A stretch of DNA of 64,000 bases from Candidatus Dojkabacteria bacterium (lineage in GTDB: Bacteria; Patescibacteriota; Dojkabacteria; B142; WJKM01): positions 68,345 to 132,344 of the forward strand of contig WJKM01000004.1 of assembly GCA_014729085.1 (NCBI GenBank). The letters run 5' to 3'. The position numbers were made by a program, and so were the translations under genes. This document shows positions 22,347 through 57,778 of the stretch, in pieces (within the stretch, counting starts at the first letter, position 1; the number at the start of each line of letters is the position of its first letter). The notes under the pieces are model-generated. The model made no database searches and had not been told where the DNA came from. It saw nothing but the letters and a program-made list of their open reading frames with translations.

Positions 22347-22465
22347 TTTATTAATAAAATAATTGTTTAGTAAAATATAACAAAAATTTCGTACTTTGCT
22401 ATTTGACGAAAAATCCAAGCACTTGAGCAGAAATCAGTGCCTGGACTCAACTTTTTCTAATGTAA

Positions 22466-22590
22466 TTCTACTCGAAAATCTCTTTGATTATATTTACCGT
22501 TTTTTCTTTGTCTTTATGAGGATTTTCAACTCAATCACTCCACCTGTACTATATTTTTGAATCTCTTTAACTAATCTGATACTCTCAGTA
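22466..22590 (-). pseudogene. decayed fragment of the htrA 3' end (PDZ C-terminus), carried in the tandem duplication
   Basis: About 80% nt identity to 23180-23300, the 3' end of the HtrA gene. It includes the duplicated terminator hairpin at 22415-22444 and has no upstream ORF. Confidence 0.55.
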
Positions 22591-22594
22591 AATT

Positions 22595-23056
22595 TTAAAG
22601 ACTGACTACATAACCATATCCTCCTAGTTCAGATGCTTCTAATCTTGCACAAATTAATAAATTCTGAAAATCCATCCCAATAGCAACATTATCTCTGCTT
22701 GGTCTCTTAGATAAGAAATCTCCTTGATCGGAGCATTCATTACCTGAAGTTCCCGCTCTAAACCATTGCAGGTCCATACCCTTTACTTCATATTCAGCAA
22801 CTTCCTGGCCTTGAATATAGAAAGTAATTGAATTTTCGCTCTCACTTTTAGTTGCGTTATCAGGATACATGAAATGGTTGGTTTGTATATCATGTATTGT
22901 TAAGATGAGATCTTCAACAATTTTTTTTCTTTTAAGATCACGAGCATTACGTTGAACAATTTGAATACCATACGCAGCAATGGAAATTAAAACCGCAATA
23001 ATTGCCATTGCAACCAAAAGCTCCACTAATGAAAAAGCTTTCTTAGTAAGTTTCAT
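22595..23056 (-). CDS. type IV pilin-like protein (prepilin-type N-terminal domain), paralog 2
   Basis: The N-terminal 40 aa are almost identical to the pilin at 21861-22346 (MKLTKKAFSLVELLVAMAIIAVLISIAAYGIQIVQRNARD). The C-terminal region is divergent. Confidence 0.7.
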   Translation of the reverse strand: MKLTKKAFSLVELLVAMAIIAVLISIAAYGIQIVQRNARDLKRKKIVEDLILTIHDIQTNHFMYPDNATKSESENSITFYIQGQEVAEYEVKGMDLQWFRAGTSGNECSDQGDFLSKRPSRDNVAIGMDFQNLLICARLEASELGGYGYVVSL

Positions 23057-23118
23057 TTTATTAATAAAACATTTTATTTAATAAAATATAACAAAAATTT
23101 CAGTACTTTGCTATTAGA

Positions 23119-23157
23119 CCAAAAATCCAAGCACTTGAGGAGAAATTAGTGCTTGGA
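23119..23157 (-). terminator. Rho-independent terminator of htrA; a duplicated copy lies at 22408-22446
   Basis: Minus-strand ccaagcact-(12 nt)-agtgcttgg followed by attttt. The copy at 22415-22444 has one G-U pair (ccaggcact...agtgcttgg). Confidence 0.5.
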
Positions 23158-23179
23158 CTCAACTTTTTCTAATTTAATT

Positions 23180-24382
23180 CTACTCGTAAGCCTCCAAAGT
23201 AACATTTACGGTTTTTTCTTCGCCTTTATGAAGAATTTTCAACTCAACCACTTCGCCTACACTATATTTTTGAATCTCCCTATCTAATCGGGCATTCTCA
23301 TCAATTTTTTTTCCATTAATTTCAAGAATAATGTCATTTTCTTGAATTCCAGCTTTATCTGCAGGACCACCTGGAATAACTGCCAACTCTTCTGGAGTTT
23401 CTCCACGTATTACAAGAGCTCCATAATCTACCTTTAGATTATTTGCTTCTTGCAATTCCGGTGTTACCGGAACATATCTTACACCTATATAAGGCCGGAC
23501 AATTTTTCCATGCTCTTTGACAGATTCGACTACCTTTTGAACACTATTTGAAGGAATTGCGAATCCTATATTTTCAGCTTGAGCCATTGCAACATTCATA
23601 CCTATTACATTTCCAGAAAGATCGAGTAGAGGACCGCCTGAATTACCAGGATTAATTGAAGCATCTGTCTGGATTACCCCCGTCAAAGTTTCTGCTTTTC
23701 CAGTTGTTCGGGATCCTGCTGTAATTGATCTAGCAAGTCCGGAAATAATTCCTGAACTTACCGAATTCGAAAATTGGCCAAGTGCATTTCCAATTGCTAC
23801 TACTTTTTGTCCAACCTTAAGATTATCCGAATCACCAAAACTAAGGTAATTTAAATCATTTCGGGCAACCTTGATGACAGCAATATCCATAAGCGGATCA
23901 CGTGCTAAAATCTCTGCATCGATTTTATCTCCATCATTAAAAACAACTGTATAAGAAGCTTCCTCGTCTTGTACGACATGTTTATTAGTAACAATGTATC
24001 CGTCGCTTGATACAATAAAACCAGTCCCAGCACCTACCTCTTGCTCTTCCTCCCCAATTTGTCTTCGGCCCTTTCTCCGAAAAAAATAATCAAAAAAATC
24101 ATCTCCAAACGGAGAAGGATTGTAGTAAAATTCTTCATAGACAGGTAAATCTTTTGTGACAATTATACTCACAACAGCATCTTGGGAATTTTCTACTACT
24201 TCTACAACTGCATCATTACTATCTACAATTTTTAAATCTGTTGAAAGGTTACCATTTTCACCGTTTCTATTCATTTCATATTTTGTATATGCTACACCTG
24301 CGATAAGTCCGGAAAACCCAGACACAAAATTTGTAACAAGAATAACTATAACTAGAAACAGTAAATACTTTTTTTTCTTCAT
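23180..24382 (-). CDS. htrA: HtrA/DegP-family serine endopeptidase with C-terminal PDZ domain
   Basis: Signal/TM anchor, then a trypsin-like domain: GTGFIVSSDGYIVTNKHVV (His region), a D-containing segment, and GNSGGPLLDLSGNVIGMNVA (catalytic Ser). The PDZ region is ...GALVIRG...GGPADKAGIQENDIILEINGKKI. Confidence 0.85.
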   Translation of the reverse strand: MKKKKYLLFLVIVILVTNFVSGFSGLIAGVAYTKYEMNRNGENGNLSTDLKIVDSNDAVVEVVENSQDAVVSIIVTKDLPVYEEFYYNPSPFGDDFFDYFFRRKGRRQIGEEEQEVGAGTGFIVSSDGYIVTNKHVVQDEEASYTVVFNDGDKIDAEILARDPLMDIAVIKVARNDLNYLSFGDSDNLKVGQKVVAIGNALGQFSNSVSSGIISGLARSITAGSRTTGKAETLTGVIQTDASINPGNSGGPLLDLSGNVIGMNVAMAQAENIGFAIPSNSVQKVVESVKEHGKIVRPYIGVRYVPVTPELQEANNLKVDYGALVIRGETPEELAVIPGGPADKAGIQENDIILEINGKKIDENARLDREIQKYSVGEVVELKILHKGEEKTVNVTLEAYE

Positions 24383-35475: not shown

Positions 35476-35490
35476 ATGATTACTATGAAT

Positions 35491-35564
35491 TCAGGCCAGG
35501 CGGACTTGAACCGCCGCTCTCACGGCCCCCAGCCGTGCGTTTTAGCCAACTAAACTATGGCCTG
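35491..35564 (-). tRNA. tRNA-Pro (anticodon GGG)
   Basis: The revcomp folds as a cloverleaf. Acceptor CAGGCCA/TGGCCTG, D-stem GTTT/AAAC, anticodon stem CACGG/CCGTG with loop CTGGGGG, T-arm GGCGG-TTCAAGT-CCGCC, discriminator A. No encoded CCA. Confidence 0.8.
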
Positions 35565-35646
35565 AAATTTATTTGCTCTCTATAAATGAACAATAAAAAT
35601 AATATAAGTATTTTATAAAATCACAGAAAATTTGTATAGCTTGAAA

Positions 35647-36036
35647 TTAAGAGATCAAGGTATAAGCAATATAAATAACTTCTCCTATAATTGCCAAAAT
35701 AAAAACAATAGTCATTATCTTGGAAATTGGCAAGGTTTTCTTTTCACTCACTTGCTGTTGAGGCATTTGTTGTGGGGGTTGTACTACTGGAGGTTGTTGG
35801 ATTTGTACAGGAGGCTGATTTGGATTCTGAACAGGGACATTTGGAGTCTGTGGAACTGGATTAGGCTGTGTCTGAGTTTGAGGCTGCTGTTGTCCAGGTA
35901 CATTTCCTACTTGTGGTGAGGGAACCGCAGGCTGTGTCTGTTGATTCGGCTGCTGAGGTTGTCCTGATGAATTTGGTTGATTGGGTAGAGGAGGTAATCC
36001 TCCGGGATTATTTTGCTGTTGGGCAGGATTTTGCAT
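35647..36036 (-). CDS. proline/glutamine-rich low-complexity protein with C-terminal TM anchor
   Basis: 129 aa. It is about 75% P/Q/N/V repeats (QPQQPNQQTQPAVPSPQ...), with a hydrophobic tail TIVFILAIIGEVIYIAYTLIS. The upstream region and 5' end are duplicated at 37630-37823. Confidence 0.4.
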   Translation of the reverse strand: MQNPAQQQNNPGGLPPLPNQPNSSGQPQQPNQQTQPAVPSPQVGNVPGQQQPQTQTQPNPVPQTPNVPVQNPNQPPVQIQQPPVVQPPQQMPQQQVSEKKTLPISKIMTIVFILAIIGEVIYIAYTLIS

Positions 36037-36137
36037 ATCTTCAAAATTCTCAAATTAATCAGTTTATTATGCCTTCTTTAAGAAATGAGGTCAAGATAAA
36101 GTCAGTTGTCCGTCATACATTCAACCCCTGCTTGTTT
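35941..36137. repeat. ~195-bp direct repeat, copy 1 (copy 2 at 37630-37823)
   Basis: About 85-90% nt identity between the copies. Both copies contain a 3'-terminal gene fragment (..QAG.EC.TDN*), an intergenic leader, and the 5' end of the PQ-rich gene. The gene is intact here but stop-truncated in copy 2 (MQNPAQKQNNPGGFPPLPNQPNSSFQPQQPNQ*). Confidence 0.6.
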
Positions 36138-36186
36138 AAAATCGATGAAATGATAAAACTACAAAAGAGGGTCAATTAGAAATCTA

Positions 36187-37275: not shown

Positions 37276-37629
37276 ATTTTCCAGAAGTAAATCTAAAGAA
37301 TTATATCCTAAATTTTCAGAATCAAATTATCAACTTTTTAGTAAGATATTAAATTTCTGTCTCTTGTAACTGAACTTATTGTATGTTGATTTTGTATTAT
37401 AATTTTTGACAATAGTAATTTCGCATCCTTATACAATCAATCCTATATCAAATTTACAATTTATTCCACTTTTTTTTGGTGGAACCTCAAATCATGATAG
37501 TTTTAAGACAATTAAACTCAAACGAATCTTTTAAAACTTGGTAGAATTTTAAGATTACCAACCTAAATTTAGAAGAATTCCTTTTTTTTTATAATTAAAA
37601 TAGCCGAAGGAACTGTAGGTTGTACTTAC

Positions 37630-37823
37630 TGATTCGGTTGCTGAGGTTGAAATGATGAATTTGGTTGATTGGGTAGAGGAGGGAATCCTCCGGGATTGTT
37701 TTGCTTTTGGGCAGGATTCTGCATATCTTCAAGTTATTCAATCATTTTATTATGCCTTCTTTAGGAAATGAAGCCAAGATAAAGTCAGTTGTCCGTCACA
37801 CATTCAAGCCCTGCTTGGTCTAA
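37630..37823. repeat. ~195-bp direct repeat, copy 2
   Basis: See copy 1. This copy overlaps the true 3' end of gene 37785-39047 and carries a truncated 5' pseudo-copy of the PQ-rich gene. Confidence 0.6.
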
Positions 37824-39047
37824 ATAGCCAATATAATTTTGAAATAAAGGATCTGGAAAATCTACTCCATGTTTTCTTCGTAAATCATTGTAATAACCTC
37901 CTTCTTCAAAAAGTTTAGACATTTGCTCACAATCAGATTGATAAACCATCATTGGTAACTCTTGACCGTCCAACATAGCTTCTGTATACGATACTACATA
38001 AGGAAGACTTAAACTATCTGTCATAAGATTTCTCTTTGCATTATAATAAGCAGCTTCACTAACGTCGCTGTAGTCAGAATCAAAATTTCTCATATCATAA
38101 ATTCCATTATCTGTTTCTATAATGTAATCACCATCATCTATCAATTCTTGAAAATAAAGATCTACAACTTCACGAACAAGATTTTCTTTAGCCTCGTAAT
38201 CATAAGCTGCTGGTTCTTCAATATCATACTCATCCATTATTCTTTGAACTTCATTCTCCAAAAGACGGTTTTCTATAAGTTCTTCATATAATACCCCCGA
38301 ACGAGCAATACTTGCTAATTCTGGGACTGTCAAATCTTGAATATCTTCAAATGATATTCCTCTTACTTGCCATAGATTACCTAAATTAGAAACATTAAAA
38401 TTCATTGCCTCATCTGGAAAACTATATCCTATTCGACCTAGGTCATCAGTAACTCTAGGCCCGTATTTGAGCATAGTAAAAATGAACATATCTCGATCAC
38501 TTCCTGAAATATCAAAAACAATTTCGGGTTGTATAATATCAAATCCTTCTGCCTCAAGTAATTGACACCAATTGCATCCGGTTCTATACTGACCTTCAGT
38601 AAAATTCATGAAAATATGATCAAAATCATATTCAACTCCTGATTCTTCTTCAAATATATTAAGTCGAGTACGTAAAGCTTCTGGAGCAAGCATGAAATCC
38701 GCTTCATGTGGATTATTTACATGCCCATAAATTGTCCTTTCTCCAAAAGGAAATTCAAAATGTGCCTGAGGTGATCCTACATCTTGATTTGTGTTACTCA
38801 AATCAAAGGAAGTATATTCTCCCTCTAATTCCAAAAATCCTAGCTCTGGAAGACGATCTAAATTACCATCTCCATTAAAATCCAAATCAAACAAATCTGG
38901 AATACCATCTCCATCCATATCTGGATTTGAAGCTTCTACCGTAGACGTAGGTACAGGAGTAGCTGTAGGATCAATTCCATCAGGATCTGGTACCGGTGTT
39001 TCGCTTGGGTCTACTTCTGTATTAACTGCACCTCCACAACCTGTCAT
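37785..39047 (-). CDS. hypothetical secreted (possibly lipo-)protein with Asp-rich Ca-binding-like N-terminal region
   Basis: N-terminal DMDGDGIPDLFDLDFNGDGNLD. The in-frame upstream sequence encodes KRYGPLLLAVTLMTGC, which is signal-peptide plus lipobox-like, but there is no canonical start codon upstream (see findings). Confidence 0.45.
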   Translation of the reverse strand: MTGCGGAVNTEVDPSETPVPDPDGIDPTATPVPTSTVEASNPDMDGDGIPDLFDLDFNGDGNLDRLPELGFLELEGEYTSFDLSNTNQDVGSPQAHFEFPFGERTIYGHVNNPHEADFMLAPEALRTRLNIFEEESGVEYDFDHIFMNFTEGQYRTGCNWCQLLEAEGFDIIQPEIVFDISGSDRDMFIFTMLKYGPRVTDDLGRIGYSFPDEAMNFNVSNLGNLWQVRGISFEDIQDLTVPELASIARSGVLYEELIENRLLENEVQRIMDEYDIEEPAAYDYEAKENLVREVVDLYFQELIDDGDYIIETDNGIYDMRNFDSDYSDVSEAAYYNAKRNLMTDSLSLPYVVSYTEAMLDGQELPMMVYQSDCEQMSKLFEEGGYYNDLRRKHGVDFPDPLFQNYIGYLDQAGLECVTDN

Positions 39048-42511: not shown

Positions 42512-42803
42512 ATTGATTAAAGAATTAAAATAACATACCTATTTCATTATATAATATATATTCCAGATACCTTAATTCATTCTTCATGAGTTTCCCTAAT
42601 TTAATAAGTGATTATTTTCCGCCAATATAAGTAATCGACTCAATAGCTAATTTGAGTTCATTTGATGTGGATTCTCAAACTTCGACATTAATAAAACCCT
42701 TTAATACAAATTCAGTATCAATTTAACTAATGGTTTTGCTGCACTTCGTTTACAAAGCCAAGACTATCACCTGCCTACCAAAGTACTTTGTACGGCGGGC
42801 AGG

Positions 42804-42876
42804 TTGTCGATCTGGTTTCCGGTTCTCGCCTTTCAATTCATACCAAAAATAAAAAATTCCACCTTTCGGTGGATTT
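42804..42876. repeat. ~73-bp repeat R75, copy 1 (other copies at 46956-47027 and 50106-50168), containing a bidirectional terminator hairpin
   Basis: ttgtcgatc(y)ggtttccggttctcgcctttca(w)ttcataccaaaaataaaaa(a)ttccacc(t)ttcggtggattt. It contains hairpins ccgg-ttt-ccgg and ccacc-tttc-ggtgg, flanked by A-runs and T-runs on both sides. Confidence 0.6.
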
Positions 42877-42935
42877 AATTAGAGGAAGCGACCTGCCTTC
42901 TCCTTCGCAAGTTCAGGATTGTTTTCAATAACAGT

Positions 42936-42966
42936 GGAGCCAAGTACTGGGCAAAGTCCGAACTGA
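42936..42966. repeat. direct repeat S, copy 2 (copy 1 at 46148-46176), flanking the DUF4297-HerA cassette
   Basis: ggagc-NNNN-tactgggcaaagtccgaact, 29/31 identical between the copies. Both copies begin with the same ggagc pentamer that starts the tRNA-Gly-derived core. Confidence 0.6.
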
Positions 42967-42986
42967 GTATTTAAATAAAAATACGC

Positions 42987-44744
42987 TTATGTAACGTTTT
43001 TCCAGTCCTTTGTTACATTTTCAAAATTAACATCTTTCCATTGTTTTTTCCAGATGTCTAAATAATCAATGTCCGGTGATTTTGGTTCTTGGTTGGGCAT
43101 GTGAATTTTAACCAATGAAGGCAAAATGATAGATTCCCCTATCAAAAGTGCTTCCCCAGCTTTCAATGTTGGCAAATAATTGGTTAAATCACCCAATGTA
43201 TCCGGAAGCAATTTCCTAACATAGTTTTGATCATCTGGATTTGTCAGTCTCATGGCAATAAAGTTATTGCATTGAGAAAAAATTGTTTCAGAAATTTCAG
43301 CTGGTCTTTGACTGACTATTCCAAGTGTAATTCCATATTTTCTACCTTCTTTTGCAATTCTTTCAATAGCTGTCCTTGAAGCCCTATACTTTGTTAAACC
43401 ACTTCTTGGAACATATTTGTGAGCTTCTTCAAAGATTAAAAGTAGTGGTGTATCACATTCAGATGAACCATCTAACATTTTTTTGTAATAGTATCCGTAT
43501 TCAAACAGTATTCTTGAAATAAGTGAAACAGTAACACTAAGAACTTCAAAGGGAATTCCAGAAAGATCAAATATTGTTACATTTGCCTTGCTTTTGGTAT
43601 AGCCTATGAATTGTTTTAACACGTCTTCAAGTGTAAGTGAGTCTGCATTTTCAAATAAAAACCTGAGTCTGGGATTATTCCTTGTTATATCAAGTCTTAA
43701 AATAAACCTTTCAAAATGACCCTTGAATGGTCCAGGACCAGCTTTTGTCGCCTTTGTTCTTGACTGTTCACAGAAATCAATATCATCTGTGAAGTATTTA
43801 GGAATTCTATCCGGAATCAATTCTCCACTAATTGATTTGGGTACGTTTTCACCTTCTAACTTCCCGATGACCTCATTATTCACATTTTTTATATATCTTA
43901 TTACTTCATCAATATTAAATCTAAAAGGGGAATCAAAGTAAATATTCTTAGAATCAATATCTGGATTTGTATGTTTTTTGTTTTCTGTAACAGCATATCT
44001 GAACTGTGAAACTTGATTATGTGAATTATCTTCGTTACTTTCAATAAAAAGATCCCCAAGCTCATCACTATCAAAAAGCCAATAGGGAATCTTTATATTT
44101 GAAGAATCAATGATGTTAGCATCAGGGAATGCTTCCCTATATTCTCCGCCTATATCAAAAATCACTATATGAGAATTGTTCAAATCATCATAACTACCAT
44201 TTTTTTCTTGTATTGCCTTTTGAATTATGGAAGCAACTGAATGTGACTTTCCAGATCCAGTTGACCCAACAATTGCAAAATGCTTGTTGAATAGTTTATT
44301 ACCATTCACTGGTACTGCAATAGCATTATTTTGTGCAAGGTCTGAAAACACAAACTTTTCTGAATCTTTCAATTTACATGAATATATCTTGTTAAAATCT
44401 TCATCTGATAATAGTTCTATTCCATTGTTAGGTGGAAGCGGTATCCCATGTGCACCACGTTCAAACTCAACTTTACCTTCTGACAATACCCTATATGATC
44501 CAATCAGTTCAACTTCAATAATAAATTGATTTTCACCCGCAGGCGTATCAGGATCTGTTGAATCTAAGTTTTTAATTTTGTAGTTCTTGATCACACCTAT
44601 AATGAAGTCACTTGAATCACTTTGGAAGGGAATTTTTATATAACTTCCAATATTAAAGTGATTATCAAATTGCTTTGAATCAAGGATTTCAATTGATACT
44701 ATATCCCTTGTTACACCTATTATCTTGAAATTTTCTGGGTCCAT
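42987..44744 (-). CDS. HerA/FtsK-superfamily ATPase (HerA-like helicase, DUF87-type), candidate antiphage defence component
   Basis: 585 aa. Walker A is FAIVGSTGSGKSHSVASII. Walker B is LLLIFEEAHKYVP. Further downstream are GITLGIVSQRPAEIS, a sensor/arginine-finger-like region, and an N-terminal HerA-type barrel. The gene abuts the upstream DUF4297-like gene. Confidence 0.65.
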   Translation of the reverse strand: MDPENFKIIGVTRDIVSIEILDSKQFDNHFNIGSYIKIPFQSDSSDFIIGVIKNYKIKNLDSTDPDTPAGENQFIIEVELIGSYRVLSEGKVEFERGAHGIPLPPNNGIELLSDEDFNKIYSCKLKDSEKFVFSDLAQNNAIAVPVNGNKLFNKHFAIVGSTGSGKSHSVASIIQKAIQEKNGSYDDLNNSHIVIFDIGGEYREAFPDANIIDSSNIKIPYWLFDSDELGDLFIESNEDNSHNQVSQFRYAVTENKKHTNPDIDSKNIYFDSPFRFNIDEVIRYIKNVNNEVIGKLEGENVPKSISGELIPDRIPKYFTDDIDFCEQSRTKATKAGPGPFKGHFERFILRLDITRNNPRLRFLFENADSLTLEDVLKQFIGYTKSKANVTIFDLSGIPFEVLSVTVSLISRILFEYGYYYKKMLDGSSECDTPLLLIFEEAHKYVPRSGLTKYRASRTAIERIAKEGRKYGITLGIVSQRPAEISETIFSQCNNFIAMRLTNPDDQNYVRKLLPDTLGDLTNYLPTLKAGEALLIGESIILPSLVKIHMPNQEPKSPDIDYLDIWKKQWKDVNFENVTKDWKNVT

Positions 44745-44753
44745 TTCGTTAAC

Positions 44754-45938
44754 TTAAAATTTAATTGCTTCATAAATTTGCTTAGTTGACAATCCTTCTA
44801 CACAAACTGATGGCAGTGATTCAAAACGCTCTGGAATGTTATGATCAAATGCATATATCATCTGTGGGGTATTTTGATAGTCAACTATACTATCGAAAGT
44901 AGATTCAGAAATTAGTCTCATTTCAAAAGAAATTCTTTCTAACGTTTCTGTAGCACGTCCATTACTTAAAGTTTTCTTTTCTTTTAGTGGTTTTTCAAAA
45001 AAGATGGAAGAATTGAAACTAATATTTTCATAGCCATCATTAAAATTTACATCATATCCAACTATCACTTTCTTTGCTTCTTCAACATGATCATCTGGTA
45101 CTACAAAGGTAATTGGATTTATGTCAATCTGTGGTTTCTTCCCTTTATAGTCTTCTACTACAGCTAATATAAGTTTCCCCATGTTATATGACGGATCATG
45201 TTTTACTTTTCCCAACATTACTAAATTTTCTTCTTTCCGTATGATTTTGCTAAACTTCTTTTTAATAAATGCCAAATACTTTTCTTCTCCTTTGAATTCT
45301 AGAAATGCTGAGTTAAAAATAATATTTTTACCAGATTTGACGTAATCCATTAGTTCCTTCCTATTTATTACCCGGTCTTCTGGATTTATTGTTTTTGTTA
45401 TTTTTTTTCTAATATAGTCAACTATATTAGAATAATAAAAGATTGCTTCATCAGTATTTGATGCTAAACCGAGTTCTTCATCCTGAAGCTTCCTAATTAC
45501 TTGTTGAAACTGCTGTTGGAAATCCGGTGCAAAATCTAAGACAAACTTCTTTATAAAGTCATTCTTTATTTTTTTACTGAACTGATCTTTCTTATTTCCA
45601 AGAATTTTGTTCAGGTTTTTTAATGAAAGGTGCCTGTCCTCACCTACAAACTTTTCATATCTTTTATATGAAGCAAATGAGGCATAAAGAAAGTAGTTCT
45701 TTTCATTATCATCCCGAAAATTATTCAGTAGATTGATTACAGGGGTTTTGATTTTTGAGGGCGTAAACGCTTGAGTTTCTTGGTATTTTACCTGAATCAC
45801 AAAATTTTTCGATGATATATCTTCAATAATTTCAACCCCAATAGGGTCTGTTTCATTAGTAGATTCAAGAATTTCAAATACAGTTTTGTCTATTTGATAT
45901 TCAAATCCTTTGATTGCATAATATCCACCATCGGTCAC
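44754..45938 (-). CDS. DUF4297-like (Cap4-type PD-(D/E)xK nuclease-like) protein, candidate partner of HerA in a DUF4297-HerA defence system
   Basis: 394 aa, within the 368-411 aa range typical of DUF4297. The N-terminus is GGYYAIKGFEYQIDKTVFEIL...IGVEIIEDISS..FVIQVKYQE (GxxYQ plus E..D...Q.K). The gene is co-oriented with the HerA gene and overlaps it by spacing. Confidence 0.5.
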   Translation of the reverse strand: MTDGGYYAIKGFEYQIDKTVFEILESTNETDPIGVEIIEDISSKNFVIQVKYQETQAFTPSKIKTPVINLLNNFRDDNEKNYFLYASFASYKRYEKFVGEDRHLSLKNLNKILGNKKDQFSKKIKNDFIKKFVLDFAPDFQQQFQQVIRKLQDEELGLASNTDEAIFYYSNIVDYIRKKITKTINPEDRVINRKELMDYVKSGKNIIFNSAFLEFKGEEKYLAFIKKKFSKIIRKEENLVMLGKVKHDPSYNMGKLILAVVEDYKGKKPQIDINPITFVVPDDHVEEAKKVIVGYDVNFNDGYENISFNSSIFFEKPLKEKKTLSNGRATETLERISFEMRLISESTFDSIVDYQNTPQMIYAFDHNIPERFESLPSVCVEGLSTKQIYEAIKF

Positions 45939-46010
45939 GAGTAAGTTCTAAGAATTATGATAAGTAATTATCTCAAAGAATTATTCCAACTTACAAATAA
46001 TATTTGATTT

Positions 46011-46152
46011 GGTTCGAACCAGCCAAAATCACTATCATTACTGGTAGGATGGAAGGTAATCACGGTAGGGGGTATCAAAAATTCGGTTTTAGCTCGAACC
46101 AATATGAATTATATTTGAAAAGGGTTTCGGGGTTTTTATGAGAAATTGGAGC
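46011..46152. repeat. ~140-bp conserved cassette leader, block A copy 1 (copy 2 at 49861-50002)
   Basis: About 85% identical between copies. Each ends in ...gagaaattggagc, immediately 5' (on the minus strand) of the first gene of a module (DUF4297 or the ATPase). It contains tataat and ttcaaa hexamers and a short hairpin attac...gtaat. Confidence 0.6.
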
Positions 46153-46262
46153 ACCCTACTGGGCAAAGTCCGAACTAGATTTTTGGAAATTCACTTTAAT
46201 TCTTTTGTTATAATATTATTAATCACTTTAGTTAACTATTATAATAAATAAACTACTTAATT

Positions 46263-46796
46263 ATGGTACCTACTGTTATTTTTAGTATAATAATATGTTT
46301 TTCGTTATACATATTTATATTCTCCTTACTTTCAAAAATAATATTAATTATTCTCAAACGTGTATTTCAATTATCACCAAAAATAAAAAAAATAATCTCA
46401 ATAATTGATATTATTTTAATTATAATTCTTATTCTGTGTATTCCGGCTATATTTATTTCTATTTTTATGGGTGGATGCTACACATCCTCACTAAAAACTG
46501 ATCAGATTTGTATTAATGAACCTGATAGTTATGGATGCTGGATTTGTGATAACGATGGAAATTATAACTATCAAAAAAATTCAGGTAGTGATATCAAAGG
46601 AACAGATCTTTGTGAGTTGTGTAATAAGGATGAAAACACGGGAATAAAAATTCAGACTGAAATTGCAAATATAACAGGCACAGAACTAACTTGTAATCGA
46701 ATAGTAGGTTCAAAAAATACGAATGATGGCATAGGGGTAGAACAAACTGAAAAAACAATTAAATGCATTTTGATAAAGGGAGAGAAAAATTGTTGA
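46263..46796 (+). CDS. small Cys-rich membrane-anchored hypothetical protein
   Basis: 177 aa. Two N-terminal TM helices are followed by a 100-aa domain with 10 Cys (CINEPDSYGCWICDNDG ... CELCNKDENTG ... CNR ... C..C). It lies between repeat S copy 1 and the tRNA-derived core copy at 46859. Confidence 0.35.
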   Translation: MVPTVIFSIIICFSLYIFIFSLLSKIILIILKRVFQLSPKIKKIISIIDIILIIILILCIPAIFISIFMGGCYTSSLKTDQICINEPDSYGCWICDNDGNYNYQKNSGSDIKGTDLCELCNKDENTGIKIQTEIANITGTELTCNRIVGSKNTNDGIGVEQTEKTIKCILIKGEKNC

Positions 46797-46858
46797 AAAT
46801 TTCGAGCAAATGGTAAGGAGTGTTTTGAATCAGGTTAATTTTATTGGAATTAGAGGGT

Positions 46859-47040
46859 GAGCGATGGACCGGGCTCACGTGGATTTGTAGACAAATCCAG
46901 TATCAATTCAGGTAAGTTCACTTCCTCATTTCATTCGTCGTTCACTAACCCTTCATTGTCGATCCGGTTTCCGGTTCTCGCCTTTCAATTCATACCAAAA
47001 ATAAAAAATTCCACCTTTCGGTGGATTTTTATTTTTGGAG
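46859..47040. repeat. ~175-bp block B, copy 1 (copy 2 at 50003-50170); begins with a tRNA-Gly 3'-end-derived core and ends with R75
   Basis: The first 18 nt, gagcgatggaccgggctc, are the revcomp of the last 18 nt of tRNA-Gly (GAGCCCGGTCCATCGCTC). The remainder is about 95% identical between copies. The ORFs in the track (46857-47105, 49988-50170) are translation artefacts of this repeat. Confidence 0.65.
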
Positions 47041-47189
47041 TCGTGCCTTCGCTAAAGCTTCGGCAGACTCTCGTACTTCAATCAATATTTCAGTACATTC
47101 AGTAATCGACTTGCTATACGAAACAAAATTGAATGTAATGAAATTTTGTGAAGTATGGAGCTCTCTGATAGAGGAAGTTAGAACTAATG

Positions 47190-47870
47190 TTAGATTGATT
47201 CAGTAACTTTGTATATCCCAGTACGACTAAAATCAGGACTAGGATTTAGTATCCATTTACCAAAAGAGACTTTATCTTTATCTGGACAATAATGCTCAAC
47301 ACCAATAGACAGTTCTTTGTCATCATCCACGCTAAGTAGCCAATACGATTTAAATCGATCATTCTTACTTTGGCAATCCACTTGAGGAATCAGGAGATCT
47401 TTATCAATCAGCCAGCCATCAATAAACAGTAAAAGATTCCTATTAAATGGAGAAACTTCTTTATCAATTTTATGACTCAAGGCCTTCTTAACTCCTTTCT
47501 CAAGATCAAGACCATAAAATTTCTTACTATTTTTGTTCTGGACAAAAGCAGATGTCTGCTCCAAAGCGTAAGCAAATCGGTCAATATAAACAAATCCATC
47601 ATCCAACTCTGTAAATCCCTGTTTTCCTTCTTGAAAACCAAATCTCACATCCTTATTATTTAAATTATTCTGTAGGATAACAAAAACGGAGAACACTCCA
47701 AGCATTTCATATAAAGAAAGATTAAAAGGATCAAGCTTTGAAGAATTGTATAAAGATTCAATCTTATTAAAATGATCTTTTAATGAATTAATAAGGGGAG
47801 AATACTGTTTCAAAGTTTTAAATGACCCATATGGGGGACTTTTAATAAATTTCGCCGAATATCCATTCAT
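47190..47870 (-). CDS. hypothetical protein, third gene of the ATPase module
   Basis: 226 aa with no recognisable motifs. It is co-oriented with and 17 nt downstream of the 127-aa gene. Confidence 0.3.
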   Translation of the reverse strand: MNGYSAKFIKSPPYGSFKTLKQYSPLINSLKDHFNKIESLYNSSKLDPFNLSLYEMLGVFSVFVILQNNLNNKDVRFGFQEGKQGFTELDDGFVYIDRFAYALEQTSAFVQNKNSKKFYGLDLEKGVKKALSHKIDKEVSPFNRNLLLFIDGWLIDKDLLIPQVDCQSKNDRFKSYWLLSVDDDKELSIGVEHYCPDKDKVSFGKWILNPSPDFSRTGIYKVTESI

Positions 47871-47887
47871 CCATTCCCTTTGAGATA

Positions 47888-48271
47888 TTAGTTTGGAGAG
47901 CTTCGCTCTCGTACAAATGATTCTATCATATCCTCGATCAGTTTCAGATGACTAAAAAATTTCTCACCCCAGAAGTCACAATCAACTTTCTTAGATACCT
48001 CACTCAATTTTTGTTTCAATTCACTTTCAAGAAACACCCCGGGTTTATAATTGTAAAGCCACAAACAAAACATGACCATCTCAACACTAAGTCTATACTC
48101 CTGGAAATAAAACATATGTATTGAATCAATGATAAAAATTTCAATAACCTCTGGTTCAAATTCTATCTCTTGATTTGGATCAGAAGATCCATGTTTAAAA
48201 TCATTATAATCCTGGTTAACAATATCCTTAAATCGTTTCACTGATGTATTACTTTTTCCATATCTCTTCAT
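47888..48271 (-). CDS. hypothetical small protein, middle gene of the ATPase module
   Basis: 127 aa with no recognisable motifs. Confidence 0.3.
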   Translation of the reverse strand: MKRYGKSNTSVKRFKDIVNQDYNDFKHGSSDPNQEIEFEPEVIEIFIIDSIHMFYFQEYRLSVEMVMFCLWLYNYKPGVFLESELKQKLSEVSKKVDCDFWGEKFFSHLKLIEDMIESFVRERSSPN

Positions 48272-48403
48272 GAAGTGTTCCTTATGATATTGTTTTAATA
48301 CATCCCTATTTAGATGTTCATCAGCTTTTTCAACAAAATATGATAAATGAATAAATAATATTACTGCTAATTACAATATTTAAAAGAAATTTTTATAAAA
48401 AAC

Positions 48404-49795
48404 CTATTTTTTAGTTTTCTTTGATTTTACTATCTTAATCATTTCCGTTATTGATTTTTTAAATTCGTTTTGCGAATATGTCTTATTGGCTGTATTTTCC
48501 GGGTGATGTATTGAGTGTCTTATATAAGTTGATAATGAAACTGATTCGTTACGTTTCTTTTTTTCGTTATACCAAGTTTTAGTTTTTGGTAGTTTTTTTA
48601 AGTCTGTCCTATACTTCCCTTCTATATACCCGTATAACTCATTATGAAATTCTACTGTAGGTATGTCAAACGCGTAATAATTCACTTCTCCCCAAGATGG
48701 GCTCCAAGGAAATAAATTTTCCTGTGTATCTTTGATATTCTTATACTTAATGATGCCCTTACTATCCTTTGAAAGTAAATATATTACTGTATTATCATCT
48801 TGAAGATGTTGCTTGAATAAATATGGAGAATGTGATGCCATAAAAATTTGCCCGTTTTGTTCTCCTTTTTGATCATTAAGTAGTTCTTTGAAATAATTGA
48901 GTAATTGAATTTGAGTTTGTGGATTTAAACTTTTTTCAGGTTCATCTATAGATACTATTACTCCTTCTGAAAATTCTTGATTCTGAAGAACTTGTATAGT
49001 CCTGTGTACCAAACTTTTTTCTCCTGAACTTAGATTTTCTAAACTTGAATCTTTCCCATTCTCTTCAAAATAAACTTGCCAACCATCTTTAGTTTCCCGA
49101 AGTTCTTTAAGATTCTTACCATAGGGAAGAATCTTTTCAAACGCTTTGCGTAATCTATTCCACCTTTTATCAATTACATCTTTAGGTATCTTCTTTTTAG
49201 GATGATCTATAATCCAGTTTCGAAGATCTTGATTATCGTGAAATTGTGTATTTATTAATAGTTGATGATTCCGAGCACCTAATTGACTATCATGGCTCAT
49301 AGCTGTAAAATTTTCTTTATCAAAAGAATCCTTTGTAATGCTAGAAACTTTCTTCAATCTATAATTAGGCTCTGCTCCAGAAAAAATGAATTTAAAATTC
49401 TGAACAAATTCTCCACTAATCCTTCCAAGATCAAGGTCAGTGTATTCATGAGAATTATCGTTGCTGAAAGAAATTTTTCTTCCCTCATTAGACATAATCA
49501 GCTTAATTGTTTTACCTTTAATTCCCTTATGAAACCATCCAACCGTTGTGATATTTTTCAAATTTTCGCTCTCATGCTTATTTAATTGGAATTCATACAT
49601 TCGTATTTCATCGCTAGCCGTAGGTATACCATTGTGCAAGAATCTGTCTATTATGTTTTCAAATAGATATGTCTTTCCAACACCATTATTGCCTATAAGG
49701 AGTACATTATCTGCAATTTTCCCATTAAAATTGAAATCAAGGTCCAGATCTCCAATAACGGGATTATTTTTAACTTCAATTTTTGAAATCTTCAT
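48404..49795 (-). CDS. ABC-type / AAA_15-21-like ATPase (OLD/Gabija-GajA/ABC-3C-type N-terminal ATPase), candidate defence ATPase
   Basis: Walker A is LLIGNNGVGKTY near the N-terminus. The ABC signature is LSSGEKSLVHRT. Walker B is VIVSIDEPEKSLNP. The D/H-loop region is IFMASHSPY. About 130 aa at the C-terminus are unassigned. Confidence 0.6.
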   Translation of the reverse strand: MKISKIEVKNNPVIGDLDLDFNFNGKIADNVLLIGNNGVGKTYLFENIIDRFLHNGIPTASDEIRMYEFQLNKHESENLKNITTVGWFHKGIKGKTIKLIMSNEGRKISFSNDNSHEYTDLDLGRISGEFVQNFKFIFSGAEPNYRLKKVSSITKDSFDKENFTAMSHDSQLGARNHQLLINTQFHDNQDLRNWIIDHPKKKIPKDVIDKRWNRLRKAFEKILPYGKNLKELRETKDGWQVYFEENGKDSSLENLSSGEKSLVHRTIQVLQNQEFSEGVIVSIDEPEKSLNPQTQIQLLNYFKELLNDQKGEQNGQIFMASHSPYLFKQHLQDDNTVIYLLSKDSKGIIKYKNIKDTQENLFPWSPSWGEVNYYAFDIPTVEFHNELYGYIEGKYRTDLKKLPKTKTWYNEKKKRNESVSLSTYIRHSIHHPENTANKTYSQNEFKKSITEMIKIVKSKKTKK

Positions 49796-49860
49796 TTTTT
49801 AAGTATTAAGAGTTGTTTTGATTATAACTTACCTATTTAGAGAAAAACAAAATTAAACTT

Positions 49861-50002
49861 GGCTTGAACCAGCCAGAATCACTATCATTACTGGCAGGAC
49901 GAAAGGTAATCACGGTAGGGGGTATAGGAAATTCAAATCTGACTCGAACTAATATGAATTATATTTGAAGAGGGTTTCGGCGTTTTTATGAGAAATTGGA
50001 GC
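49861..50002. repeat. block A, copy 2 (cassette leader)
   Basis: See copy 1. It abuts the tRNA-derived core at 49998-50016. Confidence 0.6.
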
Positions 50003-50170
50003 GATGGACCGGGCTCACGTGGATTTGTAGACAAATCCAGTATCAATTCAGGTAAGTTCACTTCCTCATTTCATTCGTCGTTCACTAACCCTTCATTGTC
50101 GATCCGGTTTCCGGTTCTCGCCTTTCATTTCATACCAAAAATAAAAATTCCACCTTCCGGTGGATTTTAA
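50003..50170. repeat. block B, copy 2, directly adjacent to the tRNA-Gly 3' end
   Basis: See copy 1. It is followed by aatttttggagc and then the tRNA. Confidence 0.65.
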
Positions 50171-50174
50171 TTTT

Positions 50175-50251
50175 TGGAGCGATGGACCGGGCTCGAACCG
50201 GCGACCTTCACTTTGGCAAAGTGACGTTCTAGCCAACTGAACTACCATCGC
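50175..50251 (-). tRNA. tRNA-Gly (anticodon GCC), CCA encoded
   Basis: The revcomp GCGATGGTAGTTCAGTTGGCTAGAACGTCACTTTGCCAAAGTGAAGGTCGCCGGTTCGAGCCCGGTCCATCGCTCCA folds as a cloverleaf. Acceptor GCGATGG/CCATCGC, anticodon loop TTGCCAA, T-arm GCCGG-TTCGAGC-CCGGT. Confidence 0.85.
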
Positions 50252-50378
50252 ATCAAATTGAACTCATGTATTATAGTCATTATTTTAGATTGTTTCAATA
50301 TTTTATTTTATTGTTTCAAAAACTCGTTATATTGCATAATTGTCTTAAATGAGGTTATAATAGCAATCGTAAAACTTT

Positions 50379-50455
50379 GGGTGCTTAGCTCAACTGGCTA
50401 GAGCATCTCGTTTACACCGAGAAGGTTTGGGGTTCGAGTCCCTAAGCACCCACCA
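50379..50455 (+). tRNA. tRNA-Val (anticodon TAC), CCA encoded
   Basis: GGGTGCTTAGCTCAACTGGCTAGAGCATCTCGTTTACACCGAGAAGGTTTGGGGTTCGAGTCCCTAAGCACCCACCA. Acceptor GGGTGCT/AGCACCC, anticodon loop TTTACAC. Confidence 0.85.
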
Positions 50456-55036: not shown

Positions 55037-56404
55037 TTAAATATTATCCAGTACCATAGCTAACTGTGAACCTCCAATTAAGGTTGGGGCTTTAACAAAA
55101 AACATATGATTATCTTCAATTAACATATCAGTTACTTCTCTTGCCTTTTCCATGATTTTTTCACTCTCCCAGAAGACTTTGCCATCAATTGGGATAAGTT
55201 TTGTCCCATTCTTATAACCAGCAGCTTTGGTAACACAAGCTATAGTGGCACCAATTGATTGTCCTGCCTGTATGGTAGCTCTGTAACTGCACTCTTTAAT
55301 TACTTTATATATGTAATGAACTTCAAAACCATCTAAAAAATTATTTAAATCTAATTTTATGAATTTCTTAAATCCAATCTTATCATCTGTAAAATATGAA
55401 AAGAAATGTTCATCTGGTTGATCAATTATCCACTCAACGATACTTTTCGACATCACTTCATTATCCGAAAGCAGAGAAATGGCTGCGGCAATTCTATATC
55501 TAATATAATCCCCACCCGTCAGATGCTCAATAAACTTTTTCTTAGTATGAATTAGATCAAGATCCATCATTTTTTGATGAATAAGTTCTGCAAGACCAAA
55601 TCTTTCTGGTCTAATAAATTTACTAACCTCTAAATTCAAATCTCGTATTGCTGCATTTGAACCATTGCTAAATACGAAACCAACAGGAAGCTTTTCAATA
55701 TCTTTGTGTTCATTATCCGAGGGTAGAAAGCTAACCACACAGGAAGTATCGTTTATTATATAAACATTTTTGAAATTAAAGCTAAAACTTTTATCTAACA
55801 AGTTTTTCCTTAATAAATTTCCTATATAACTTGGATATTTATATTCACCAAAATCTATAATATTCCAAGATTTGGGTAATTTCCTCCTAAGAAAATATGC
55901 ATCAATTCCATCATCAATAAGTTTATTCTGAACTGGAAAAGCAAGTGATAACAATACCGTGATATCTTGATTCATGGATTTATCCCATACTCCATCAACA
56001 ATCTTTAAGATTCTTAGAATAAACTGACGGAAAGTGCATCTTCTTTCTTTTCTAGGCATTACATATTTTTTTTCTTTCTGGACTTCCAAAACACCGCTCT
56101 TGGTTTTACTAATTACAGAAGATTTCCAAATTGTTCCACCTAAATTACAAGCAATTATTTGCTCCCCAACAGGTACTTTCTCAAATTGCTTGGATTTTAT
56201 CTGAGGTATATCTGTCTTGATAATATCAATCTTTGAATCTTCATCTACTCCCTCTACTTTAGATCTAATTGAATTAAGAACTGCTTCGTAAAACTCAGGG
56301 GCTAATACTCTTTTGATCTCAACATCAGTAAAAGGCCGAAGACCAAAACTATCCAACATTTGCTTTACATAATTCATATAGTCTGATGAGGAATTCGTTT
56401 GCAT
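55037..56404 (-). CDS. hexokinase-family (eukaryote-type hexokinase/actin-fold) sugar kinase, paralog B
   Basis: IIACNLGGTIWKS (compare LDLGGTNFR), LSLAFPV (GFTFSFP), YIINDTSCV (NDTVGT), GFVFSNGSNAA (GTGTNACY), and C-terminal IPIDGKVFW (VAVDGSLYK). Confidence 0.5.
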   Translation of the reverse strand: MQTNSSSDYMNYVKQMLDSFGLRPFTDVEIKRVLAPEFYEAVLNSIRSKVEGVDEDSKIDIIKTDIPQIKSKQFEKVPVGEQIIACNLGGTIWKSSVISKTKSGVLEVQKEKKYVMPRKERRCTFRQFILRILKIVDGVWDKSMNQDITVLLSLAFPVQNKLIDDGIDAYFLRRKLPKSWNIIDFGEYKYPSYIGNLLRKNLLDKSFSFNFKNVYIINDTSCVVSFLPSDNEHKDIEKLPVGFVFSNGSNAAIRDLNLEVSKFIRPERFGLAELIHQKMMDLDLIHTKKKFIEHLTGGDYIRYRIAAAISLLSDNEVMSKSIVEWIIDQPDEHFFSYFTDDKIGFKKFIKLDLNNFLDGFEVHYIYKVIKECSYRATIQAGQSIGATIACVTKAAGYKNGTKLIPIDGKVFWESEKIMEKAREVTDMLIEDNHMFFVKAPTLIGGSQLAMVLDNI

Positions 56405-56416
56405 TTAAAAATACTA

Positions 56417-57778
56417 TTATTTTACATATGATTCTTGGACCATAAGAAACTGGGCTAAACCAACTACACTAGATGCCTTTATCATACTAATATTATTTTC
56501 TGGAATTAATAAATTTATTACTTTTTGTGACTGCTCCTGAATTCCATAACCTTTCCAATATACTGCTCCTTCTACCGGAACAGCAATATCTCCTGTATTG
56601 TATTCAGCTGACTTGAGGACAGATGCAATCATTACTCCAATAGTTTGCCCTGCTTGAATTAAAGCACGGGTCGAACATTCTTTTAATATTACATAAATTC
56701 GACGTGCCTCGGTTTCTTCCTCCACTAAATTAAAGTCGAGGAAATCATCATAGGACATATCACCACTTGCTAAACGACTTACAATACTTGCATCTTCTTG
56801 CTGTATCATCCATTCAGCTATTCTATTTGAAATTATCTTATCTTCGGAGAGTATCGAAAGAGCTGATGCAATTCTATATCTAATGTAGTCACCTCCATGA
56901 AAATGCTCAATAAATTTCTTCTGGGTATGTACCAAACCAAGTTCGATCATTTTTTCATCTATCCTTCTGTCCAAATCTAACTCTTGAGGCATAATAAACT
57001 TGCCGGCTTCTAAGTTCCATTGTTTCAATGCTGCATTTGATCCTGTTCCAAAAACAAATCCCACCGGGTATTCACCAAACTCATCTTTACCTGGTAGTTG
57101 TTGAGCTACCGAATTCGCATCATTGAGAAAATATACATATTTTATATTTGGAAGAGAGTAGGTTGTTAATAACTTTTCCAAAAACAATTTACCAATCAAA
57201 CTGGGAAAAGGTAGTTTATGAAAATCTCTAACAATCCATGATTTAGGCAATTTCTGTCTTAGAAAGTAAGCATCTATTCCATACTCTGTTCTTACATTTC
57301 TATGAGGAAATCCTAAAGAAATACCTACGAATTGAAATTCATCCTTATCTTCTTCTTGCAGTATATTGTAGATTTGTTCTGCCATTTTCAAGATAAAATC
57401 CTGGAATCTGATATTTCGCTGTTTACGAGGTATATATATCATATTTTCTTTGTATATCTCTGTTTTTATATCATCCGTCTTTCGTACCAAAGATGTAACC
57501 CAATTAGTTCCTCCATAAGAACACGTAATTACTTTTTTCCCAACAGGAACGTTTTGGAACTGCTCCTTTGTAATCAACTCGACATCAGTAGGAATAGCAA
57601 GTAGGCCACCGTCTTCATTAGTAGGATCTCCATGTCTATTAATACCAACGTTTATCGCATGTAAATATTTAGGGAAAATAATATCGCGAAGTTCATATTC
57701 ACTAAAAGGACGCAATCCTATTTTATCCAGATTTATATTTATTTCTTTAATGAATGAATCTAATGACTCTTCCTGCAT
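56417..57778 (-). CDS. hexokinase-family sugar kinase, paralog A
   Basis: VITCSYGGTNWVTS, GISLGFPHR, YFLNDANSVAQ, GFVFGTGSNAALK, VPVEGAVYWKG. It is about 35% identical to paralog B, with the same motifs in the same order. Confidence 0.55.
   Translation of the reverse strand: MQEESLDSFIKEININLDKIGLRPFSEYELRDIIFPKYLHAINVGINRHGDPTNEDGGLLAIPTDVELITKEQFQNVPVGKKVITCSYGGTNWVTSLVRKTDDIKTEIYKENMIYIPRKQRNIRFQDFILKMAEQIYNILQEEDKDEFQFVGISLGFPHRNVRTEYGIDAYFLRQKLPKSWIVRDFHKLPFPSLIGKLFLEKLLTTYSLPNIKYVYFLNDANSVAQQLPGKDEFGEYPVGFVFGTGSNAALKQWNLEAGKFIMPQELDLDRRIDEKMIELGLVHTQKKFIEHFHGGDYIRYRIASALSILSEDKIISNRIAEWMIQQEDASIVSRLASGDMSYDDFLDFNLVEEETEARRIYVILKECSTRALIQAGQTIGVMIASVLKSAEYNTGDIAVPVEGAVYWKGYGIQEQSQKVINLLIPENNISMIKASSVVGLAQFLMVQESYVK

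Follow-up and report, generated by a model that had tools for sequence, protein, structure and literature searches.

A 144-nt repeat heading two defence cassettes beside tRNA-Gly in a Candidatus Dojkabacteria genome: a candidate attP-type arm of integrase-less elements

Block A and the tRNA-Gly gene

A sequence of 144 nt, designated as block A, is repeated in front of two unrelated defence modules in a 64,000-nucleotide stretch of Candidatus Dojkabacteria DNA (GenBank assembly GCA_014729085.1, contig WJKM01000004.1, positions 68,345 to 132,344; hereafter the window, to which all coordinates refer). The source of the sequence is a metagenome-assembled genome (MAG). Block A is interpreted here, with moderate confidence, as the tRNA-proximal backbone arm, of the attP type, of integrase-less defence cassettes which resemble cis-mobilizable elements (CIMEs) and were accreted at a tRNA-Gly gene; it possibly doubles as an upstream regulatory region. 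An earlier note on this DNA, made from the letters alone, had offered three readings of the block (a common promoter or regulatory leader, the arm of an attP site, or a small RNA), and the attP arm fits best among them, as the end of block A coincides with a copy of the 3' end of tRNA-Gly or with the hexamer TGGAGC.

The two copies, A1 (46009-46152) and A2 (49859-50002), both on the minus strand, were delimited with blastn and alignment. They align without gaps and are identical at 126 of 144 positions (87.5%, E 2e-42). The earlier note had estimated the identity at about 85% and placed the copies at 46011-46152 and 49861-50002; both statements hold, with the blastn core beginning 2 nt earlier in each copy. 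Fainter similarity was recognized through repeat-family analysis for 14 nt more towards the genes, to 45995 and 49845. The terminal sequence of both copies is AAATTGGAGC, and TGGAGC occupies 46147-46152 in A1. In the sense of the minus strand, the distance from block A to the start codon is 71 nt in cassette 1 (start at 45938) and 64 nt in cassette 2 (start at 49795), in agreement with the placement of the block upstream of the first gene of each module. The terminal ggagc, the pair ATTAC-N14-GTAAT (46037-46060 and 49887-49910) with a loop differing at three positions, and the minus-strand TATAAT (46113..46108 and 49963..49958), all pointed out before, are present in both copies. A third copy was not found in the window with nhmmer, using a profile built from both copies.

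The differences between A1 and A2 are unevenly placed: 8 of the 18 are concentrated in one 17-nt patch, and four runs of 18-23 nt, at 46027-46044, 46053-46075, 46101-46119, and 46132-46152 in A1, are perfectly conserved in this two-copy comparison. The clustering of differences between perfect runs suggests, from two copies, that the runs may be constrained boxes like recombinase arm sites. The G+C content of blocks A and B (the latter described below) is 39-42%, that of A being 39-40%; the window as a whole has 32%, and the spacers beside the start codons have 19-21%. The spacers between A and the start codons of the two cassettes are non-homologous.

An intact tRNA-Gly(GCC) gene, the presumed primary attachment site, is located at 50175-50251 on the minus strand (ARAGORN; Rfam tRNA, 66.1 bits). 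Its 3' end (...GAGCCCGGTCCATCGCTCCA) faces the array of cassettes, and 172 nt separate it from A2. An exact 20-nt copy of this 3' end, reaching from halfway through the T-loop to CCA, lies between A2 and block B copy 1 and is designated as O2 (49997-50016, minus strand). A second copy, O3 (46857-46876, minus strand), matches at 18 of 20 positions, with GTGAGC for TGGAGC, and lies at the start of block B copy 2. O2 and O3 are on the same strand as the tRNA-Gly gene. A2 runs directly into O2 and the boundary is exact, the last 6 nt of A2 (TGGAGC) being the first 6 nt of O2. Read as its reverse complement, GGAGC corresponds to the 3' end of tRNA-Gly (GCTCCA). The "junction pentamer" ggagc of the earlier note is present as described, while its origin in the tRNA-Gly 3' end had gone unrecognized there. 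Repeats of a tRNA end together with shared element ends are what site-specific integration into a tRNA gene usually leaves behind.

The divergence between the repeated segments also changes at this point. A1 and A2 show 18 differences in 144 nt (12.5%), and the adjoining segments made up of the tRNA-end copy and block B (O-B) show 4 in 179 nt (2.2%; Fisher p = 2.8e-4). The switch falls exactly at TGGAGC. This sixfold gap implies separate histories for the sequences on either side of TGGAGC, and a single segmental duplication is rejected because the divergence of A and O-B is unequal. According to the earlier note, a lack of further copies would make block A simply a part of one duplicated segment. 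Further copies were indeed not found within the searches made; the duplicated segment does not fit the sixfold gap or the unrelated cargo.

Block B and the TGGAGC junctions

Block B is about 160 nt long and occurs three times in the window. Copy 1 (B1, 50017-50174) lies between O2 and the intact tRNA-Gly, immediately downstream of the tRNA. Copy 2 (B2, 46877-47040) ends in TTGGAG, and O3 with B2 is 97.8% identical to O2 with B1. Copy 3 (B3, 42706-42880) was detected with nhmmer at E 1.2e-23; it has diverged on the left, where it also has insertions, and it shares 98.6% identity (72/73) with B2 over the 73 nt on the right. No tRNA fragment is recognizable next to B3.

B2 is a mosaic. In the aligned O3-B2, counted from 46862, the first 126 nt are identical to O2-B1. 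The last 53 nt of O3-B2 (46862-47040) carry 4 differences from copy 1 (50002-50179), and 72 of 73 positions agree with B3 (42804-42876). Judged from the alignments, the mosaic points either to exchange between the copies, by recombination or gene conversion, or to a joint made through the repeat in the metagenome assembly.

Every block B includes a TCCACC-N4-GGTGGA hairpin (50149-50164, 47010-47025, and 42858-42873) with T-runs on both strands. This hairpin is a predicted two-way terminator-like site, at which the transcript of tRNA-Gly would stop, as would those of the cassette operons in copies 2 and 3. The tRNA-Gly gene is preceded by a near-consensus promoter, TTGAAA-17-TATAAT (11/12), at 50270-50298 on the minus strand, which sits in the short divergent spacer towards tRNA-Val (50379-50455).

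A1 ends in TGGAGC followed by ACCCTACTGGGCAAAGTCCGAACT, designated as repC, and not by a tRNA fragment. RepC (46147-46180) directly abuts A1. Its counterpart repC' (42935-42968) has the form TGGAGC-N19-GAACT and lies just past the HerA stop codon, at the distal end of cassette 1; blastn aligns the two with 92.9% identity over 28 nt, and repC' equals repC save for a 5-nt patch. Because repC' and repC share this sequence, cassette 1 and A1 are bracketed by an imperfect 34-bp direct repeat. A more diverged TGGAGC-N19-GAACT, repC'' (47156-47189), is found just past the last gene of cassette 2.

The pattern TGGAGC-N19-GAACT occurs 3 times in the window against 0.03 expected, and TGGAGC-N5-ACYGGGC, which also covers the tRNA end, 4 times against 0.03 expected, all matches to both being on one strand and within 42.9-50.2 kb; the patterns were partly built from these sites, so the counts overstate the significance. 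RepC'' is an independent match within a 150-nt target region. Block A and the intact tRNA-Gly share, on the same strand, a tRNA T-arm-like motif GNYNNGAACY, and repC bears GTCCGAACT, which was judged by eye to be related to it. RepC was also considered as the 3' end of another tRNA and this was rejected, since a T-arm and acceptor cannot form (by hand) and no pseudo-tRNA was detected. A transposon-like reading was rejected as well, there being no inverted repeats between cassette ends beyond chance.

The cassettes and remnants joined at TGGAGC constitute an array spanning 42.7-50.2 kb beside the intact tRNA-Gly, and every junction across 42.9-50.2 kb bears TGGAGC or a close variant. Read along the minus strand, the proximal part of the array runs tRNA-Gly, B1, O2, A2, cassette 2, repC'', GCTCCA, a 115-nt linker, and CTCCAA. 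The distal part continues with B2, O3, a segment containing an open reading frame (ORF) of 177 codons, repC, GCTCCA, A1, cassette 1, repC', GCTCCA, a 47-nt linker, and B3, followed by host genes. The backbone common to both units is A ... repC-GCTCCA-linker-B.

Genes carried by the cassettes

The cargo of cassette 1 (42987-45938, minus strand) is an anti-phage pair of DUF4297 (44754-45938) and HerA (42987-44744), recognized with PADLOC, Pfam, and NCBIfam. The DUF4297 protein matches the PADLOC DUF4297 profile at 1.9e-28 and the NCBIfam profile DUF4297_antiphage at 3.9e-37 with 128 bits, short of the curated cut-off of 300; Pfam gave no match for it. The HerA protein matches anti-phage HerA at 1.4e-211 with 704 bits, short of the curated cut-off of 850. 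Homologues of the DUF4297 protein are at most 51% identical and are found in unrelated defence-island or Prim-Pol contexts; neither A, B, nor tRNA fragments lie beside the homologues examined.

Cassette 2 (47190-49795, minus strand) encodes an AAA_15/PtuA-like ATPase (48404-49795), assigned through family profile matches, and proteins of 127 and 226 aa after it which have no family match in Pfam, PADLOC, PHROGs, or NCBIfam. The gene identities proposed in the earlier note, DUF4297 at 45938 and an ATPase at 49795 in unrelated modules, agree with the profile matches. The cargo genes of the two cassettes are unrelated and only the ends are common: A (87.5%), the repC-like sites, and B. No recombinase, integrase, or transposase is found among the cassette proteins with the same four databases.

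The 700-bp segment between A1 and O3 includes ORF177 (46263-46796, plus strand), which is opposite in orientation to the cassettes. Its 177-aa product is hydrophobic and membrane-spanning in the N-terminal half and rich in Cys in the C-terminal half. Pfam, PADLOC, and NCBIfam gave no match for it, and PHROGs gave just a marginal one to a membrane protein (E 0.089).

Promoter, RNA, and coding analyses of block A

Promoter-like pairs are located on the minus strand at the gene-proximal edges of both copies: TTGTAA-18-GATAAT at 45967-45996 for cassette 1 and TTGTTT-18-TATAAT at 49821-49850 for cassette 2. Both are consensus matches only. In both cassettes, the edge of A with weak similarity includes the -35 element, and the -10 element precedes the start codon by 26-29 nt. 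The DNA is AT-rich, and promoter-like matches are no more frequent in it than expected (35 against an expected 38.6). The conserved TATAAT inside A has no recognizable -35 partner, and the better pairs are outside the core of A, next to the genes. Use of the cassette pairs would leave A outside the transcript of the operon, at about -36 to -180. Since the promoter-like element of each cassette begins at the inner edge of A, the block may carry upstream regulatory sites.

Neither A nor B matches an Rfam family at the gathering score in the window, or at E<=10 in 42600-50300; the Rfam comparison recommended in the earlier note was carried out in this way. The RNA fold energies of A are like those of shuffled sequences for both copies and strands (z -0.58, +0.98, -1.83, and +0.39), as are the DNA fold energies (z -0.25, +0.78, -0.35, and -0.25), and there is no predicted fold common to the two copies. 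The proposed ATTAC/GTAAT hairpin has a 5-bp stem and a 14-nt loop. The only internal inverted repeat of A1 (45991-46017 with 46094-46120, 74%) is not kept in copy 2. The small RNA or cis-acting sensor suggested in the earlier note is left unsupported by the Rfam comparison and by fold energies within the range of shuffles.

Block A was also considered as a gene or clear pseudogene and this was rejected. The sole shared open frame, on the plus strand, reads ...NQP.SLSLL.G.KVITVGGI.NS.L.RTNMNYI* and has no start codon in copy 1, and the mismatches are spread evenly over the codon positions (6/5/7).

Searches for relatives of blocks A and B

The 21-mer GGTAATCACGGTAGGGGGTAT, conserved in A, had no exact match in species-representative genomes or in IMG/VR viral contigs. 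In JGI metagenomes it had one match, on a high-GC contig, judged to be a chance match. Three more words from A, B, and repC, compared with the viral contigs, gave just two 18-mer matches, also judged to be by chance. The A1 region (45940-46260) matched nothing in phages with blastn, and of a query containing A2, B1, and tRNA-Gly (49800-50260), the tRNA-Gly portion alone matched plasmids. A chimeric six-frame stop-free peptide query of A, O, and B, aimed at spurious ORFs called over related DNA, matched nothing at E<=10 among 5.8 billion called proteins. The closest other sequence to the flanking patatin gene is 89% identical and lies on a 1,069-bp contig without the locus. In more distant Dojkabacteria (patatin 43-47% identical), neither synteny nor A or B was observed. 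The absence of further copies is weak negative evidence, because the searches were made with exact words or were limited in scope and did not extend to the rest of the source genome.

Proposed origin of the array

The array adjoins the 3' end of tRNA-Gly(GCC), where a tRNA-targeted island would be located, and has the direct repeats O2 (20/20) and O3 (18/20). An integrase of its own, the further feature of such islands, was not found among the ORFs of at least 120 aa in the window. The A2...B2 unit is flanked by tRNA-end repeats and has no recombination genes, as is the case for a CIME; the repeats would be the att sites.

As an attP-type arm, block A would belong to integrase-less elements which accumulate in tandem at the tRNA-Gly 3' end in this Candidatus Dojkabacteria genome. 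A recombinase encoded elsewhere, or since lost, would bind sites in A, in the core, and in B or repC, and would thereby move the cassettes. Newer arrivals would push older elements away from the tRNA. The segment B1-O2-A2 (49859-50174) would be a reconstituted attP, the junction which arises anew when related elements insert in tandem. The unit from A2 to B2, flanked by tRNA-end repeats, would be the younger one, the solitary B1 a remnant, and the ORF177 segment between O3 and A1 a further insertion. If the cassettes are mobile, an empty site would be expected to read linker-TGGAGC-GATGGACC..., or to have B joined straight to tRNA-Gly. The roles of A as an attP-type arm and as a regulatory region would be compatible. 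The detailed insertion history is inferred and is not unique.

Several observations weigh against this origin. Among the ORFs of 120 aa or more in the 64-kb window, none matches a recombinase, integrase, or transposase family. A1 adjoins TGGAGC-repC and not a tRNA fragment, and the 700-bp ORF177 segment separates it from O3; since A1 has no adjoining tRNA fragment, the history needs at least one extra event. B1 alone, 158 bp between two tRNA-end copies, is too small for an element, and it is therefore called a remnant. Neither a third copy of A nor further relatives of B were found in the collections searched with exact words or limited searches, and the putative mobility of the cassettes is inferred from one assembled locus. 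The 140-nt exact repeat in O-B could have let the assembler join two strain variants as an apparent tandem. With such a join, the cassettes would be alternative occupants of one site and not neighbours, and the reading of A would be unchanged; if real, the join would strengthen the case for cassette exchange.

It is conceivable, if distinctly improbable, that A, TGGAGC, and repC together constitute the recombination site of a previously undescribed cassette system of the candidate phyla radiation (CPR), with the recombinase acting in trans. Defence cassettes of about 3 kb, each a single operon with its own promoter, would then be captured and shuffled at the CCA end of tRNA-Gly and at secondary sites resembling the tRNA end. 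Such a system would be an integron-like platform on which a tRNA gene replaces attI/attC, nested in ordinary tRNA-targeted integrations.

Alternative explanations

Block A may instead be a shared cis-regulatory region, with operator or activator sites or a promoter and 5' leader, that controls unrelated cassettes, its position at the element ends being incidental or secondary. This is considered fairly unlikely. It would account for the same orientation and the similar distance to the first gene (64-71 nt) in both copies, for the promoter-like pairs starting at the inner edge of A, which put A in a region where regulators often bind, for the perfectly conserved boxes of 18-23 nt split by a variable patch, and for the conserved coding-strand TATAAT. 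However, the promoter-like matches are at the level expected by chance, the internal TATAAT is without a -35 element, and no regulator gene is common to both cassettes; two copies give no test of binding-site conservation. It also leaves unexplained why A ends exactly at the tRNA copy or TGGAGC and why the divergence switches there. A small RNA or a cis-acting sensor or riboswitch for the cassettes, or as a variant a plus-strand RNA that starts in A, crosses the tRNA-end copy, and ends at the terminator of B, is very improbable. A 9-bp long-range pairing on the plus strand of A1 (46009-46017 with 46095-46103) is partly kept in A2 by two G-U wobbles, and the terminator-like hairpin of B works in both directions. 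One of the three changes in this pairing breaks it, though, and two sequences give no power to detect covariation; the absent Rfam match, the shuffle-like fold energies, the lack of a common predicted fold, and the 5-bp stem with its 14-nt loop likewise speak against an RNA.

The possibility that A is a neutral leftover is judged unlikely. It would have no function of its own, having once been a tRNA trailer or part of an integrase region since deleted, or being homology left by segmental duplication or by cassette swapping through homologous recombination, and the tandem may be an assembly join of strain variants. The lack of detected relatives, structure, Rfam family, and coding signal agrees with a leftover, and the mosaic breakpoint in B2 could be an assembly joint, as the source is a MAG. 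A single duplication, however, predicts equal divergence of A and O-B, which is not what was observed (p = 2.8e-4). Furthermore, A has retained 39-40% G+C and its long perfect runs next to spacers which are dissimilar and have drifted to about 20% G+C, and the boundary of A with the tRNA-end copy is exact. Extremely improbable, finally, is an integron-like system in which A, TGGAGC, and repC are attC-like and the tRNA-Gly 3' end attI-like, with a recombinase in trans. The cassettes are co-oriented and have a short common core (TGGAGC), conserved flanks, unrelated cargo, and no recombinase inside, as such a system would have. Yet no IntI-type or other recombinase was found in the window, and neither an imperfect palindrome nor a single-strand hairpin of the attC kind is present in A (DNA-fold z -0.25 to +0.78). 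GTTRRRY/RYYYAAC boxes were not seen at the junction by eye, with no formal pattern scan made. The position of A is 5' of the genes and not 3', and the cassettes appear to have their own promoters.

Comparison with known systems

CIMEs have lost the genes for integration and transfer while keeping attL and attR, and occur in tandem with incoming elements (PMC5704250). The array shares with the ICESt1-related CIMEs of Streptococcus thermophilus the att-type junctions, the lack of integration and transfer genes, the tandem arrangement at the 3' end of the target, the attP-like hybrid junctions, and the decayed older members. It differs from them in that no related autonomous element or integrase is known here, in that the units are about 3 kb long with one defence operon each, and in its CPR host. 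The inner layer of TGGAGC-repC junctions is likewise absent from the description of CIMEs. In the strict sense, the array cannot yet be counted among the CIMEs or the tRNA-targeted islands, since neither a cognate integrase nor an autonomous relative is known; the likeness is one of sequence arrangement. The locus is set apart by its small single-operon units, the arm of about 145 nt, the inner TGGAGC-repC junctions, and the CPR host.

The ssrA islands of Dehalococcoides are multiple and in tandem, lie downstream of a small RNA gene, and have extra conserved sequence around each repeat (PMC3146451). Fifteen of these islands are without an integration module and were proposed as possible CIMEs moved by accretion (PMC3146451). 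The repeat in the present array is also 20 nt long and starts in the T-loop (TTC|GAGCCC...), and it also has conserved flanks (A and B). The target here is tRNA-Gly and not the transfer-messenger RNA, however, and no serine-recombinase module of the DsiB type was found. The cargo here is anti-phage where theirs is dehalogenases, and the flank is about 145 nt long where theirs is a 15-bp motif.

In the tRNA-adjacent islands of Prochlorococcus, successive integrations are separated only by partial tRNA copies, and newer elements push older ones inwards (bioRxiv 10.1101/2020.12.28.424599). Degenerate remnants and extra partial tRNAs are common there, and the cargo includes defence genes (bioRxiv 10.1101/2020.12.28.424599). 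The likeness to tycheposons is limited to the tandem partial-tRNA architecture. What defines tycheposons is a tyrosine or serine recombinase and a replication module of their own, neither of which was found in this window; there is no sequence relationship, and the phylum is different.

An attC site is an imperfect inverted repeat which folds as a single-strand hairpin and has GTTRRRY/RYYYAAC core boxes, and IntI and attI lie beside the array. Integron cassettes, including integrase-less attC clusters, resemble the present locus in having a co-oriented array, unrelated cargo, a short junction core, and no recombinase inside. Unlike integrons, this locus has no IntI and no attC-like hairpin in A; the block is 5' of the genes, there are own promoter-like elements, and the core is a tRNA 3' end.

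The structure is of a known kind, in the little-studied lineage of Candidatus Dojkabacteria. The genomes of CPR bacteria such as Dojkabacteria are very small, and both their mobile elements and the way they acquire phage defence are poorly known. If the attP-type reading of A is correct, defence systems (DUF4297-HerA and a Septu-like ATPase module) would be moving at a tRNA hotspot in minimal units of one operon each, which share their ends and have no recombinase aboard. Searches of CPR metagenomes for cassette turnover and for the recombinase that is missing here could then start from A, TGGAGC, repC, and B. Should A be no more than a remnant, the locus would be one more tRNA-linked defence island.

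Other repeats in the window

Direct repeats of about 220 nt, 85-90% identical, are located at 35918-36142 and 37606-37825, beside tRNA-Pro (35490-35565, minus strand). The genes around them encode low-complexity proteins without a family match, and no tRNA-Pro fragments were found elsewhere in the window. Tandem repeats at 22191-22596 and 22901-23309, 76-83% identical, correspond to the adjacent paralogous genes 21861-22418 and 22595-23056, whose products bear N-terminal methylation (pilin-like) motifs. A 168-nt repeat with 71% identity (55411-55578 and 56791-56958) lies inside the adjacent genes 55037-56404 (455 aa) and 56417-57778 (453 aa), which look like tandem paralogues by their sequences. 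One of this pair has a weak hexokinase-like match.

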